A stretch of DNA of 64,000 nucleotides from a virus (lineage: Duplodnaviria; Heunggongvirae; Uroviricota; Caudoviricetes): IMG/VR virus record IMGVR_UViG_2541047715_000004; one strand, given 5' to 3'. A program made the translations under genes and the position numbers. Under the pieces are notes generated by a model that saw only the letters and a list, made by a program, of their open reading frames with translations, was not told where the DNA came from and made no database searches. Below are positions 3,560 to 10,041 of the stretch, piece by piece; within the stretch, counting starts at the first letter, position 1; every line of letters starts with the position of its first letter.

Positions 3560-3811
3560 ATGCTAGGCAGCCTGATGACAAAGCTAAAAGTTGCTTTGAT
3601 TACGCTGGCTGCCGTTCTTTTCGTTCTTGTCGGCGCTTACACGATGGGCGGGAATGCGGCGCGACGAGCAATGGAAGAGAAGGCAAAACAGGAAGACAGA
3701 AAACGACTTCAAAGCACAGTGGATGTCAAAAATGAAACGGTTAATGAAGTGCGGCAAAAAGATGCCTCTGGTGTTCATCGCGAGCTGTTTGATAAATGGG
3801 TGCGTGATTAA
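3560..3811 (+). CDS. i-spanin (Rz-like)
   Basis: 83 aa; N-terminal TM helix then charged coiled-coil-like region; partner lipoprotein ORF overlaps its 3-prime end in another frame. Confidence 0.55.
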   Translation: MLGSLMTKLKVALITLAAVLFVLVGAYTMGGNAARRAMEEKAKQEDRKRLQSTVDVKNETVNEVRQKDASGVHRELFDKWVRD

Positions 3812-3959
3812 GACGCAGGCTCCAGGCGTGCTATTCTGCGATGCTGCAAATCCTATTTATGTGAGTAGAGAGGATTTTATGACTGAGGAAACGGAGCGAC
3901 AGTTGCTTATCCACAATACGATAGGTGAAAGGCTGTGTGAGTGGGGGCACCTGAACTGA
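3732..3959 (+). CDS. o-spanin (Rz1-like lipoprotein), overlapping Rz 3-prime end
   Basis: Internal ATG of ORF 3627..3959; MKRLMKCGKKMPLVFIASCLINGC signal/lipobox-like N-terminus. Confidence 0.45.
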   Translation: MKRLMKCGKKMPLVFIASCLINGCVIKTQAPGVLFCDAANPIYVSREDFMTEETERQLLIHNTIGERLCEWGHLN

Positions 3960-4183
3960 GTCGATGATTGATGAGTGGTCTCAGTTTACCTTTTATCCTA
4001 AAGATGGCATCTTCACTCATATACACGCCTGTTCACTCAAGCTCATGTTGAATCATTTAGTAATTTGATGTAGATTTATTAGGCATCCACGTAAGTGGGC
4101 ACATACAGGCTACGCATCCTCGTAGCCTTCAACCCCGAGAGGGGTGCCGCAATGACACTTGTGTTAACGGCTAAGGTGGACAC

Positions 4184-4567
4184 ATGCTGAACGAGAAACG
4201 TTCTATACAAACTATTCGCGATTGCACGAGTATTATCGAGACTCATGTGCTGAATCAGCACAAGCTTGAAGTACGTAAGCTCAATAATGACGCTATTGAA
4301 CCGGAAGACTCACGCTTCATCGTTACCTTCAAAGACGATGTTGAGCGCGCTGGTGCAAGCGTGAAGCCATTAGCTGAAGCAATTTACCTGAATGGTCGTG
4401 TTCGTTTTGTAGTCAAGCCAGCTAAACAGTACCCTGAGCTGTCTCGTTTTATCGAGGCTTTTTCGGAGGTTATTGAACATTCTATTCGCCGCTTCTTACG
4501 CAATCATGGTAGCATTGTCAGCACGGTTAAGGCTGATGATTCTGCTACAAAATGGCTCCTACACTAG
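4184..4567 (+). CDS. hypothetical protein (first gene of two-gene cassette)
   Basis: 127 aa ORF; overlaps next ORF by 16 nt. Confidence 0.45.
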   Translation: MLNEKRSIQTIRDCTSIIETHVLNQHKLEVRKLNNDAIEPEDSRFIVTFKDDVERAGASVKPLAEAIYLNGRVRFVVKPAKQYPELSRFIEAFSEVIEHSIRRFLRNHGSIVSTVKADDSATKWLLH

Positions 4568-5304
4568 ATAGCGCATATTCAAAAGATCTAAGCGAGTTTC
4601 CTCATAAAGGGGAGACTCGTGTTGTTCGTTTTGGCTTTCTTATCAATGAAGCCTCCCTCTATAAAATCTCAGAAATTGAAATCATTGAACCAGAAGATGA
4701 CATTTGCCTGTATGTCTCTATGGAACTTGTAGGTGCGCGCGACCAAGGCGACCTGAGCGAATTCATCTTAGATCGAGCGGATGAAGATGCCCCTGAAGAA
4801 GAGATTATCAAAGAGGTGCTCCAGTCCGGGCTTCTGGACGAAAACAAAAATACGATCGCTGGTAGGATAGCTCTGCGTGAATATAGTTTTGTTGAAGACG
4901 GCAATGAGATCGAATGTTACCAGGTAGCCGGTGTCGAAACTGTCAGAGAGCGTCGTCAGCGAGGATTGTGTCACCGTACCTATCTCTTTCTTCTTCATTG
5001 GTATGAGCATTTAGTCTGCGACGATACACAAACCATTCCTGGTGCTAAGATCTGGGCAGGGCCTCTCATGCGAACCGGCGATGTGCGTATATACAATGCC
5101 AAAACAGAAACGTTCGAGGATGTGTTAGGTGAGTACGGGATGGGGAAAGAAACCGGATTTTTGCCGTGGAACAGAGGATTGTTGCTTGATGCAGAGTTAA
5201 GCTCTTGGCTCCCAAACAAAGTGCAAGTTAACGTTCAGAAATTTATCGTACTTATCATCTCCCGCAAAACAAGAACTCCAGTAGGTTTATACCTAAAAGA
5301 TTAA
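4552..5304 (+). CDS. hypothetical protein (second gene of cassette)
   Basis: 250 aa ORF followed by strong intrinsic terminator. Confidence 0.45.
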   Translation: MAPTLDSAYSKDLSEFPHKGETRVVRFGFLINEASLYKISEIEIIEPEDDICLYVSMELVGARDQGDLSEFILDRADEDAPEEEIIKEVLQSGLLDENKNTIAGRIALREYSFVEDGNEIECYQVAGVETVRERRQRGLCHRTYLFLLHWYEHLVCDDTQTIPGAKIWAGPLMRTGDVRIYNAKTETFEDVLGEYGMGKETGFLPWNRGLLLDAELSSWLPNKVQVNVQKFIVLIISRKTRTPVGLYLKD

Positions 5305-5309
5305 AAATC

Positions 5310-5334
5310 AGGCGACTTTGGTCGCCTTTTTTGT
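5310..5334 (+). terminator. rho-independent terminator
   Basis: AGGCGAC-TTTG-GTCGCCT hairpin followed by TTTTTT. Confidence 0.75.
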
Positions 5335-5480
5335 TAACAGCCATTGATTCTCGCCTAAAAATTCTAAGGCAGCACCTACCATTTAACCTTTACACCACAG
5401 CCGTAGGCATTTAGGCTATATCACATATAAGAAAACAAGTTGTTTCAGACGATAATTATATACGCAAAGGGAACTCTCCA

Positions 5481-6149
5481 ATGACCAAGATCTTTGTGGT
5501 TGGCGGCACAAAGGGCGGGCCTGGCAAATCCACCGTTGCCCAGCAAATTGCCGTTTGCCTGAAAGTCAAAAAGAAGAAGAAGGTTTATATCACTGATATA
5601 GATATTCAGCGCACGACAACAAGCTGGTGTGAAGACCGTCGACAGAACGAAGACCTTGAGCTGATTCCTTTTGCATACGTTCAGGATGACATCATTAAGC
5701 ACCTAAAATCGCTTCAGGGTAGAGCTGAGTTTGTAGTGGTAGATGCTGGTGGCTTCGACTCCGAAATTCAGCGACAAGCGATGCTGATGGCTGACGTTAT
5801 CATTATCCCGCTGCGTCCTAAGCGTCGTGATTTGAAATCTTTACGTGACATCGATCCTATTATCGACAATGTTCGCAATGTAAACGATAAAGTGAAGGTC
5901 CGCGCGGTCATGAACCAGTGCCCGGCTTTGCCATCACAAGTGTCTCGCATTCTGGCGGCTAAAGAGATTGTTGAGACGTTTGGCATCGAGTCTGCGCCAG
6001 TCAATCTATATAACCGCAACGTCTATGATGATGCGGAAGAGTCTGGTCGTTCTATCTTTGAAATGACCGGTAGCGAGCGCGACAAAAAGGCGGAAGCCGA
6101 GTTTGAAGAATTTGTAGATTATCTGTTGAGTCTGGAGGAAGAAGAATAA
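5481..6149 (+). CDS. parA: ParA-family partition ATPase
   Basis: Deviant Walker A GGTKGGPGKST near N-terminus; 222 aa; followed by small RHH-like partner. Confidence 0.85.
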   Translation: MTKIFVVGGTKGGPGKSTVAQQIAVCLKVKKKKKVYITDIDIQRTTTSWCEDRRQNEDLELIPFAYVQDDIIKHLKSLQGRAEFVVVDAGGFDSEIQRQAMLMADVIIIPLRPKRRDLKSLRDIDPIIDNVRNVNDKVKVRAVMNQCPALPSQVSRILAAKEIVETFGIESAPVNLYNRNVYDDAEESGRSIFEMTGSERDKKAEAEFEEFVDYLLSLEEEE

Positions 6150-6568: not shown

Positions 6569-7642
6569 CTATTCGTAGTTAAGCTCACCGAACAGACTGA
6601 ACATCAAGTCACCATCCAAAATTTCAAAGGGCAACTCGACATACTCATCCTTATGTCTCGGAATTGCGTTGCCGTCGTTAGGGGCATTCTTGGTATAACC
6701 TTTTACATGTTTACCGTTTTCTTTTGTATACGGCAGCACGACAATTCGACCGTGATTTTTTGAAATGATAGTTCCTTCTTTCCAGAGCGTATTGCCTCTT
6801 GAGGTGGTTTCGCTTTCGCTAGCAACTTTAACACTCCAACCTACCTGATTTTTGTCCTCAAACCAGAAAACAAAGTTGCCAACAACCAGTACCTTTTGCC
6901 CATTCCTGAGAGCTTCATCCAGCATTCTTTTTACGCTGGCGAGTTGCAGTAACCGGTTAGCACGCGGCAGAAGCATTGAGCGAATAGTCGCTTTTGTTTT
7001 TCCCCAATGTGCAGCACCTGATAAACCAAAACCTCTGGCTATGCGTTCTTGGTAGCAGATCTTCGCTGTCTTAGCTTTGTTGTTATATGAACATTCCCAA
7101 GTGTTAGGAGCAACGAGTTGAAGTGAAACTTGGAATTTGGGAAGAAAAACAAAATGTAAGTAAGGCATCTCGCTTAGCACGTCAAAAAGGGGTTGACGCA
7201 AAGTTTCGTAATCTGGGTTAATTATTAACTCATTTAATGTCACTCGCGGATCGTTGGCGTGTGCCTTAATTGCTTCGTTGAGCATTATATGCTCTTCATC
7301 CATGAGACGTGATTTGGCTTTGAGTGCTTTGTCAACTTTCAAACGCAATGACTTCTTTTGAAACATAGATAGAGGAAGTTTTTCAATGTCAAAGCTCACG
7401 TTTTTATTCAGCTCTAATGCCGCTTTTCTTGCTTCAGGATAGTTATCGTAGTCGTCATCAAAAGCGTGGTTTGGCATACCACGATCAACATATCGCCGAT
7501 ACCAAGCAAGGGTTCCATCATTACGGAGTTTCAGACAGAACATCGACCATTTATTCCGTTCATATTTAGGCTGAGGCCAAAAAGCCAGTTCGGGAAGGCC
7601 ATATCCTGGAAGTCTATTCATGCGCATGGTGACAATATCCAC
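6569..7642 (-). CDS. hypothetical protein (lone minus-strand gene)
   Basis: 357 aa ORF with no motif I recognise; opposite orientation to flanking operons. Confidence 0.5.
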   Translation of the reverse strand: MDIVTMRMNRLPGYGLPELAFWPQPKYERNKWSMFCLKLRNDGTLAWYRRYVDRGMPNHAFDDDYDNYPEARKAALELNKNVSFDIEKLPLSMFQKKSLRLKVDKALKAKSRLMDEEHIMLNEAIKAHANDPRVTLNELIINPDYETLRQPLFDVLSEMPYLHFVFLPKFQVSLQLVAPNTWECSYNNKAKTAKICYQERIARGFGLSGAAHWGKTKATIRSMLLPRANRLLQLASVKRMLDEALRNGQKVLVVGNFVFWFEDKNQVGWSVKVASESETTSRGNTLWKEGTIISKNHGRIVVLPYTKENGKHVKGYTKNAPNDGNAIPRHKDEYVELPFEILDGDLMFSLFGELNYE

Positions 7643-8700: not shown

Positions 8701-10041
8701 ATGACCGAACTTTGCCATACAGGACGCGGGCTGTCCGAAGAGTTTGATGAAGATTTCCAGAACAGACTGACGGCATATTTTTGTCGTGATCACGAGTTTC
8801 TTACTCGTGCGGGAGATCTGGTTGTGCCTAGCCAGTTTGCCAATGCGGCCAATGCCATATTGGTTAATATGGTTTCGGGCTATTACCGTATGTACAAGAG
8901 CGCGCCCTCTTCATCTGCAATTCTGGATATGCTTAAGCGTGCGAAACGCGATAAGACTATCCGTGAGGAACTATTCGCCGATGTTGTTGCTGCGTTTAAG
9001 CGCATTCTTGCAGAAAAATTGTCCGATACCTCGTACATGGTTGACCAGGTATCAACCTTCGCAAAAAGTGTAGCGTTTGATGATGCTCTGATTAAGGCTG
9101 CTGAACTGAAAGAGAAAGGCGACTTTCAGGGGGCGATGGCAATCATGGCCAAGGTTCAGCAGATTGGATCGAACGAAGCGACCGGAATCTATGACTACTA
9201 CACCTCCGCAAGTGAGCGATTGAAAGCGCGTGAATATGAGGCTTCAGAGGAGTATGTACCAAACAGTATTACAACTGGACTCCCTCTTCTCGATAGGTTG
9301 CTGTACCAAAAAGGCTGGGCAAAGCGCGAAATGGTGCTCTTCATGGGGTTCGCTAAATCCGGTAAATCGACCGCAATGGGTGAGTTTTCCATAAACGCAA
9401 CGCTTGCTGGCTACAATGTTCTGTATCTCTCGCTGGAGGTTCACACCACCATTTTATCCGACCGTTTTGATGCAAGATTGTCGGAGACAGAAATGTCCAA
9501 GCTGGTGGAACGGCGCGATGAGGTTCATCGTAAGTTGGCAGAGTTGGGAGCCACGAAGGGGATTGGTAGTTTGTGGGTGGTTGAGCGTCCGTCAGGAAGT
9601 ATGTCACCGGCAGATCTGGACCGTATGCTTAACAGCATGAAAGCCAACGGCATGGTACCTGACATGGTTGTTGTCGACTACGCAGATTTGATGCGTGCCA
9701 GTTATGACCTTCGTGATGATCGCGCCAACATTCGTAGTATCTACACCGATTTACGTGCTCTTTATGACAAGCATAACGTTGCTGGGATCACGGCATCGCA
9801 GACAAACCGTGAAGGTGGCGCGTCAGAAGTTGCCACAATGATGCACGCTGCCGACAACATCGAAAAAGTACGTATTGCTGACCTGGTAATAACGATCAAC
9901 AAAACCGAAGAAGAAGAAGCGAAAGGAGAGGCTCGTCTCTACTTTGCCGGTTCACGTAACCAGCAGGGAGGGATCAGCATTCGCGTTAAACAAAACCTCG
10001 AACAAATGCGCTTCATTGAGCGAATCTTAGACGTTACCTAA
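8701..10041 (+). CDS. DnaB-like replicative DNA helicase
   Basis: Walker A GFAKSGKST, Walker B-like VVVDYADLM, RecA-fold C-terminal domain; 446 aa. Confidence 0.8.
   Translation: MTELCHTGRGLSEEFDEDFQNRLTAYFCRDHEFLTRAGDLVVPSQFANAANAILVNMVSGYYRMYKSAPSSSAILDMLKRAKRDKTIREELFADVVAAFKRILAEKLSDTSYMVDQVSTFAKSVAFDDALIKAAELKEKGDFQGAMAIMAKVQQIGSNEATGIYDYYTSASERLKAREYEASEEYVPNSITTGLPLLDRLLYQKGWAKREMVLFMGFAKSGKSTAMGEFSINATLAGYNVLYLSLEVHTTILSDRFDARLSETEMSKLVERRDEVHRKLAELGATKGIGSLWVVERPSGSMSPADLDRMLNSMKANGMVPDMVVVDYADLMRASYDLRDDRANIRSIYTDLRALYDKHNVAGITASQTNREGGASEVATMMHAADNIEKVRIADLVITINKTEEEEAKGEARLYFAGSRNQQGGISIRVKQNLEQMRFIERILDVT

Follow-up and report, generated by a model that had tools for sequence, protein, structure and literature searches.

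The window analysed here is a 64,000-nucleotide stretch of DNA from IMG/VR virus record IMGVR_UViG_2541047715_000004, which is an Escherichia coli SSU5-like phage-plasmid; over its bases 3900-5500, plasmid pHH12_P1 (CP058914) matches with 100% identity, and many plasmids of ~110 kb from E. coli and Shigella match with ~99.9%. Between its lysis and partition genes lie two overlapping genes, hereafter designated A and B, whose open reading frames (ORFs) and 16-nt overlap were found exactly as described in an earlier annotation made from the letters alone (hereafter, the sequence-only reading). Together with a promoter, a structured leader, and a terminator, A and the coupled B constitute a self-contained, horizontally mobile 'moron' cassette that extends over positions 4048-5334 (Table 1).

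Table 1 Features of the A-B cassette in the window (pI, isoelectric point)
Feature	Position	Strand	Description
Gene A	4184..4567	+	127 aa, ATG start; basic, pI 8.8; small α/β protein
Gene B	4552..5304	+	250 aa, ATG start; acidic, pI 4.8; predicted GNAT-type acyltransferase fold
A/B overlap	4552..4567	+	16 nt, ATGGCTCCTACACTAG; B start inside A 3' end
Putative σ70-type promoter	4048..4076	+	-35 TTGAAT 4048-4053, 17-nt spacer, -10 TAGATT 4071-4076
Structured 5' leader	4084..4183	+	~100 nt, hairpins P1-P4 and Shine-Dalgarno sequence
Intrinsic terminator	5310..5334	+	7-bp GC-rich stem, 4-nt loop, T-run; 6 nt past B stop codon

The gene pair and its transcription unit

Both ORFs are genuine genes and not chance ORFs, since they match PHROG hidden Markov models (phrog_2594, E=8e-46, for A and phrog_3307, E=8e-98, for B, both annotated 'unknown function'), have dozens of homologues (33-40 clusters in a 5.8-billion-protein database), and have evolved under purifying selection, the dN/dS (non-synonymous/synonymous divergence) against the Klebsiella allele being 0.14/1.03 for A and 0.08/1.27 for B. 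The B family is rare overall (46 clusters at 50% identity among 1.84 billion representatives), and all database copies of the cassette genes are annotated 'hypothetical protein'. No published description of A, B, or the leader was found in the literature.

The two genes are strictly linked. A homologue of A lies directly upstream of B in all 37 loci retrieved through B. An 18-nt motif covering the ribosome-binding site and start codon of A (GCTAAGGTGGAMACATGC) matches 39 stretches of IMG/VR contigs, and each of its 76 occurrences among the collected loci precedes A, followed by B wherever the available sequence permits. Even allele types whose proteins are only ~30-38% identical retain the 16-nt overlap (ATGGCNCCNNCNNTAR); more rarely, A and B overlap by 13 nt, abut at TAAATG (0 nt), or, in one case, are separated by 22 nt. 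Moreover, the divergence of A and that of B relative to the window allele are correlated (r=0.95). The strict linkage, the conserved overlap, and the correlated divergence thus show that A and B are inherited and expressed as a unit. Translational coupling, which the sequence-only reading had deduced from the overlap, is borne out by the conservation of this geometry across allele types and fits the lack of a good Shine-Dalgarno (SD) sequence ahead of the B start in the window sequence. A fusion of A and B by -1 frameshifting was rejected in favour of coupling, because a TGATGA located 14 nt ahead of the B ATG closes the B frame and no canonical slippery heptamer is present. In Salmonella phage SSU5 (L001 in our collection; NC_018843), the B gene SSU5_032 is annotated to start at 5255 (233 aa); the family-matching ORF, 5207-5956, starts at 5207 (249 aa, MAPS...) and restores both the conserved N-terminus and the 16-nt overlap with SSU5_031, and the deposited start appears to be too short.

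The last ORF upstream of A is the Rz1-containing frame, which ends at 3959 and leaves a gap of 224 bp. The 220-bp non-coding gap previously noted after the spanin genes is not empty: it carries the conserved promoter and the structured leader. At the other end, the strong terminator that the sequence-only reading placed after the pair consists of a GC-rich hairpin, AGGCGAC-TTTG-GTCGCCT at 5310-5327 (7 bp, 5 GC), followed by TTTTTT; a hairpin with a T-run is found 1-20 nt past B in most other alleles and contexts. With promoter, leader, A, B, and terminator all present, the cassette is a complete promoter-to-terminator unit, and these parts move together into unrelated contexts, as would be expected of the independent transcription unit that had been proposed. 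A weak Rfam match to PhrS over the end of B and the terminator (5152-5336, plus strand; 17.1 bits against a gathering score of 37, E 0.15) was judged to be due to chance.

A conserved structured leader RNA

The alignment comprised the 200-240 nt preceding A in 12-28 distinct loci, including SSU5, Dickeya, Erwinia, P2-like prophage, and integrative and conjugative element (ICE)-type alleles. A -35 TTG and a -10 GTA.ATTT, the latter within the near-invariant GTAGATTT, are conserved across these divergent loci from unrelated contexts; a strict consensus promoter scan did not list this promoter because its score is only 8 of 12. Four hairpins follow. P1 (~4086-4099, CCAC/GTGG) varies freely in sequence with its symmetry kept and contains G·U pairs in some alleles, and P2 (4108-4127, GGCTACG-CATCCT-CGTAGCC) is near-invariant across alleles as GCTACG-CATNCT-CGTAGCC. 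P3 (4132-4145, (A)CCCC-GAGA-GGGG(T)) shows the compensatory variants TCTCCC/GGGAGA, ATCCC/GGGAT, and ACC/GGT, and P4 (4146-4171, GCCG...CGGC) encloses inner stems that vary across alleles (TGACAC/GTGTTA in the window). The SD sequence of A is AAGGTGG (4173-4179), and P4 is followed by an invariant CGGCTAAGGTGGAMACATGC.

All four hairpins were recovered in independent minimum-free-energy folds of 17 distinct leaders (z -0.6 to -4.7). A covariance model of the part from P2 to the SD sequence (R2) matched the window at 4104-4186 (83.8 bits, E 2e-21) and the leader in every cassette locus, twice and in tandem in each of the two Erwinia loci, with no match in the rest of the 64-kb window and none in the cassette-less locus of phage Cyrano (L002, see below). 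Canonical pairs filled 82.7% of the pair cells, as compared with 27-50% when the partners were slid, and none of 500 shuffles reached the observed covariation score; in P3, compensatory changes were found at four of the five pairs. For P1, P2, and P4 the covariation is understated by these counts, because the MAFFT alignments misregister P1, the left arm of P2, and the inner stem of P4. Furthermore, in comparisons with saturated dS and protein identities of 32-38%, the leader core retains 78-94% identity, and the leader is thus more conserved than either protein. The 'gap' thus holds a conserved structured leader RNA that the sequence-only reading overlooked. No Rfam family was found over 4048-4183 by cmscan (E<=1, region 3800-5500), and a tRNA-like leader was rejected because ARAGORN found none. 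Regardless of its function, the leader is a candidate new cis-regulatory RNA family with unusually strong conservation.

Length variants of the leader were also observed. In Dickeya, Erwinia, and lambdoid alleles (L004, L007, L008, and L033), the leader region amounts to ~190-200 nt owing to a ~70-nt insertion, which in the Erwinia/Dickeya-type alleles looks like a partial tandem duplication. The Dickeya-type leaders (L004 and L033) show by eye a terminator-like hairpin, CCGC...GCGG-TTTT, between the leader and A, which looks like an attenuator.

These features raise the question of whether the leader RNA is itself the essential component, for instance the RNA antitoxin, decoy, or sensor of a system resembling type III, with A and B as RNA-binding or RNA-modifying proteins. 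Besides the four covarying hairpins and a conservation exceeding that of both proteins, the confinement of the GCTAAGGTGGAMACATGC motif to the cassette among the collected loci and the basic nature of A speak for such an arrangement, and the partial duplication in Erwinia/Dickeya together with the Dickeya hairpin recalls the attenuation of type III toxin-antitoxin (TA) systems. However, most alleles have no tandem repeat array, and the enterobacterial leader is not evident in the Acinetobacter homologues described below, including that on pMMD. Plain translational control of a potentially toxic operon would explain the conservation equally well, and RNAalifold also supports a simple anti-SD pairing, in which the invariant GUAGCCUCU (including an anti-SD-like CCUC) is predicted to pair with the SD region AGGUGGA.AC; these positions never vary, so that covariation speaks neither for nor against this pairing. 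We regard an RNA-centred system as unlikely.

Genomic contexts and allelic diversity

The A-B unit, ~1.3 kb in size, lies between the spanin gene Rz and ParA in all loci of SSU5-like elements, in a slot adjoining the partition genes. Elsewhere, its contexts are diverse. In a P2-like prophage (L034) it is located between Phage_GPA (replication gene A) and the portal/terminase genes; the gpA-gpQ locus of P2, home of tin and old, has been defined as an anti-phage hotspot (Rousset 2022, PMC9122126). In a Citrobacter prophage and in the PhiR12 phages of E. coli its neighbour is the integrase, in a Pectobacterium ICE it lies among the tra genes, and in Dickeya, Erwinia, Klebsiella aerogenes, and another enterobacterium it stands alone, inserted between housekeeping genes. 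Distant but clear homologues of A (hhalign probability 97%) and of B (100%), in the same order, are carried by Acinetobacter plasmids. Among PLSDB plasmids, 362 carry B homologues (260 with a match over at least 80% of B), including 99 Acinetobacter plasmids, and the SSU5-type allele is present on 54, mostly from Enterobacter. A scan of species-representative genomes yielded 2 loci only, and the chromosomal distribution given here relies mainly on exact-protein look-ups. Many of the copies have no defence neighbours. This range of contexts, phage-free copies included, rules out a virion or lysis core function: the synteny comparison reveals a mobile unit and not a pair of conserved phage core genes.

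Some of these copies show peculiarities of their own. In E. coli phage PhiR12_1 (L079, PV340549), the integrase-adjacent pair occupies 360-1479, and B is annotated as two ORFs (713-913 and 949-1479). The split is seen in each of the five PhiR12 records and probably reflects a frameshift or decay of this copy. In the Pectobacterium ICE (L082, 4935-7316), a gene for a 793-aa protein with a weak HATPase_c_3 match, which may be another cargo or defence gene, lies directly upstream of A-B. In the 9.9-kb OXA-24 plasmid pMMD of A. baumannii (L077, NC_019280), the homologues of A (106 aa) and B (244 aa) are encoded at 630-1703 on the minus strand. The plasmid has pdif sites at 2877-2904, 5005-5032, and 9504-9531, and the pair resides in a ~3.3-kb segment between two of these XerC/D sites, together with a gene for a helix-turn-helix (HTH) protein and an Arc-family gene; the pair may be carried by a dif module adjacent to that of OXA-24. 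A 310-aa protein (P0081) appears to fuse a Rep_3 initiator N-terminus to a B fragment (B profile positions 41-144) and is probably a chimera, created by assembly or gene calling, that derives from a small plasmid.

At the Rz/ParA slot itself, the alleles are highly diverse. On backbones whose ParA and endolysin are 99-100% identical to those of the window, the A/B alleles are 77/80%, 41/34%, or 32/28% identical, and the divergent ones span 32-41% for A and 28-35% for B, even where ParA is 100% identical (28-41% for the pair). In SSU5, the identity to the window is 91% for ParA and 94% for the endolysin but only 37% for A and 33% for B. Alleles that diverge this strongly on near-identical backbones are characteristic of loci for immunity, addiction, or defence. 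Furthermore, in phage Cyrano (OV696614) and 143 PLSDB plasmids, the slot is occupied, on the opposite strand, by a canonical GNAT toxin and a TacA1 antitoxin instead of A-B (4991-5825, minus strand, in Cyrano; the toxin matches Pfam Acetyltransf_7/1 and the antitoxin matches TacA1 with E 8e-26). Across this slot Cyrano is identical to the E. coli LF82 plasmid NC_011917, and tblastn of the phage collection gave no match to B in Cyrano or CMS-2020a phages. The replacement of the pair by a TA pair, the divergent alleles on identical backbones, and the copies outside phages agree with the earlier suggestion that accessory cargo is carried where modules meet. The window also has a 357-aa ORF (6569-7642, minus strand) flanked by the ParB-like gene and the next conserved gene. 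Among otherwise syntenic SSU5-like loci, this ORF is present in L003, L016, L022, L026, L041, and L055 and absent in L015, L017, and L020, a pattern suggestive of another variable cargo slot immediately downstream of the partition genes.

The heteroimmune-like allelic diversity at a fixed locus beside partition and replication genes would also befit a regulatory or immunity determinant of temperate elements, governing the lysis-lysogeny decision, superinfection immunity, or incompatibility. The leader with the P1 palindrome would then be an operator, and A and B would be non-enzymatic regulators, GNAT-like in fold only. The placement of this palindrome right after the -10 element, the variability of its sequence with symmetry kept, and the basic nature of A are compatible with this idea. 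Nevertheless, the cassette is also found without any surrounding phage or plasmid and is dispensable in Cyrano-type elements, neither A nor B has a DNA-binding domain, and the type of P1 does not track the type of protein allele. The G·U pairs in the P1 stems also favour an RNA hairpin over a DNA operator. A role of this kind is thus highly improbable.

Protein folds and tentative function

Window B and the SSU5 alleles have nothing significant in Pfam, NCBIfam, or PADLOC-DB v2, and the sequence-only reading had recognised no motif in either protein. This holds for the family models, but not for the fold predicted for B. The AlphaFold2 model of B has a mean predicted local distance difference test (pLDDT) score of 70 (with >85 over residues 20-150 and poor modelling of residues 1-10, 161-169, and 188-231) and displays the mixed α/β order of the GNAT fold (β1-α1-α2-β2-β4-α3-β5-α4-β6-β7). 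The predicted core comprises approximately residues 20-185 and a β-strand at 233-237, with an extra N-terminal β-hairpin and an insert, residues 188-231, that is conserved but unmodelled. Nearest to the model are the protein Nα/Nε-acetyltransferases Hat1, NatD, RimJ, and RimL and the small-molecule GNATs AAC(2') and MccE. At the acetyl-CoA motif A position (Q/R-x-x-G-x-G/A, β4-α3), B has R135-Q-R-G138-L-C140, the final G/A being replaced by C, M, S, or T. The family has a conserved N-terminus (MAPxL...K.L), invariant Q124, Y144, D157, Q160, W168, and W206, and near-invariant M1, P3, K11, L13, R105, G164, and Y181.

Sequence comparisons point in the same direction. A Pfam scan of 26 B relatives gave sub-threshold Acetyltransf_1 matches in three (E 0.07-0.13), co-linear with the predicted core. 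When run against the whole library, the B profile matched repeated domains of four giant proteins (E 2e-8 to 1e-3). In one of them, P0098, the matched residues 172-272 coincide with Pfam Acetyltransf_1 at 162-257 (E 1.7e-9), and P0111 and P0118 also have Acetyltransf_1 domains (E down to 5.4e-12). These domains share with B the signature eY.G[RKQ]G[ILM]...Y..L....L.SD..QT..G..LW...V.vY and thereby provide a sequence bridge to Pfam Acetyltransf_1 that supports the fold assignment. Presumably, then, B is a divergent protein with the acyltransferase fold of the GNAT superfamily, as predicted from the model. The giant proteins (P0098, P0111, P0116, and P0118; 1429-1486 aa) contain 2-3 B-like GNAT modules along with a ParB-like nuclease (ParBc_2), DUF6934, and a DUF3693 'phage related' segment; unlike B, they are multi-copy fusions and have no A partner.

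The model of protein A, which is basic in most alleles (pI ~9), has a pLDDT of 80 and consists of a β-sheet, a long helix near the C-terminus (84-108), and a tail (110-127) that is disordered. Nothing significant was found for it in Pfam or NCBIfam, only a chance-level PDC-S39 match in PADLOC-DB v2 (E 0.013 over 22 residues), and nothing at E<=0.001 by Foldseek against BFVD. As hhalign found no similarity between A and B, A is not a detectable duplicate of the N-terminal half of B. Profile searches of PDB sequences found no relative with a solved structure.

The closest known systems are the type II TA systems of the GNAT/DUF1778 type (TacAT, KacAT, AtaRT, and ItaRT). Like them, A-B is bicistronic with the small gene first and translation coupled, occupies the same Rz/ParA slot as the TacA1/GNAT pair of sister phage-plasmids, and has in B a protein predicted to be of the same fold class. 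Membership fails, however, on the antitoxin family and on the canonical sequence features of the toxin. Protein A, with its α/β fold, has no Pfam match to the ribbon-helix-helix (RHH)/DUF1778 antitoxins, among which the Cyrano antitoxin is readily detected. B is acidic, whereas the toxins are basic, and it is larger (250 aa against ~160-180 aa, typically ~175), with the extra β-hairpin and a 50-residue insert. It has no Pfam GNAT match, and hhalign of B with the Cyrano toxin was null (probability 0.4%). A long structured leader is likewise foreign to these TA systems.

The P2 gpA-gpQ hotspot cargo (tin, old, and the systems of Rousset et al. 2022, PMC9122126) is similar in consisting of compact promoter-to-terminator cassettes that swap between elements, and the L034 copy lies in that very locus; other copies are integrase-adjacent or in an ICE. 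In contrast to this cargo, A-B has no homology to any PADLOC-DB v2 model, and most of its copies are located elsewhere. From Hat1, Naa40/NatD, RimJ, and RimL, B differs in having only ~6-13% sequence identity and no sequence-level match to any PDB chain, and the A-B function is split over two polypeptides.

On these grounds, we tentatively propose that the cassette is a TA-like addiction and/or abortive-infection module of a mechanism not previously described, in which B is an acyltransferase effector and A its partner. This proposal draws on the autonomy and mobility of the cassette across many unrelated contexts, on its replaceability by a bona fide GNAT/TacA1 type II TA system, on the extreme allelic diversity with correlated divergence of A and B, and on the evidence for a GNAT fold in B. 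A TA-like organisation is further suggested by the small gene standing first, the translational coupling, the opposite charges of A and B, and the disordered C-terminal tail of A. In addition, genes of unknown function in P2/P4 hotspots usually prove to be functional defences when assayed (6 of 8; bioRxiv 10.64898/2026.02.27.708500). B is probably the effector, and A, its obligate and co-evolving small partner, is probably a neutraliser, regulator, or specificity subunit. Once the control by A is lost, B would acylate a cellular or phage target, and the cassette would either stabilise the plasmid-prophage through post-segregational killing or act against competing phages by aborting or excluding their infection. 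Expression would be set or sensed by the leader RNA, which would tune or gate translation.

Several points weigh against this proposal. Neither A nor B is matched by a defence model of PADLOC-DB v2, a TA family of Pfam, or any NCBIfam model. A has no RHH or HTH DNA-binding domain, and a TacA1/DUF1778 match is lacking in A and in 35 of its relatives. Motif A of B is incomplete, G138 being absent in about a third of the distant relatives, and the acidic nature of B is unlike that of the basic, tRNA-binding GNAT toxins. Only a single example in the P2 hotspot was found (L034), and the stable chromosomal copies could equally reflect a benign, housekeeping-like enzyme. Given the acidity of B, the non-RHH nature of A, and the incomplete motif A, the target may be a basic protein or a small molecule and not an aminoacyl-tRNA.

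A non-toxic alternative, which we consider somewhat unlikely, is that A-B is a heteromeric acyltransferase with A as the regulatory or substrate-recognition subunit, modifying a host or phage protein or a small molecule for lysogenic conversion, anti-defence, or detoxification, with no addiction or abortive-infection logic. An acidic B whose structural neighbours acetylate basic proteins or small molecules would suit such an enzyme, the strict 1:1 coupling of A and B would suit its two subunits, and the fixed chromosomal copies in several species would be readily explained. For a plain enzyme, however, it would be unusual to have such divergent alleles at a single slot of identical backbones, to be exchanged for a TA system, and to reside in a defence hotspot; moreover, substrate-related neighbour genes are absent at every locus.

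As a bolder extension of the addiction/abortive-infection module proposed above, A, B, and the four-hairpin leader might together form an undescribed three-part (RNA and two proteins) system, in which a divergent, split or heteromeric GNAT-fold acyltransferase would be checked by its partner, and the leader would serve as a sensor, switch, or bound RNA component and not as a passive 5' UTR. We view this extension as rather doubtful; if true, it would represent a new effector-regulator architecture that competes with the classical GNAT/TacA modules for the same slot.

SSU5-like phage-plasmids occur commonly in E. coli, Klebsiella, Enterobacter, Salmonella, and Shigella of clinical origin. If the cassette is indeed an addiction or anti-phage module, its ~1.3 kb would offer a cheap and well-defined test object with a natural allelic series, and a GNAT-based effector with a non-RHH partner would be added to the TA and defence repertoire. 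Such a module would also help explain how SSU5-like elements persist and keep competitors out.

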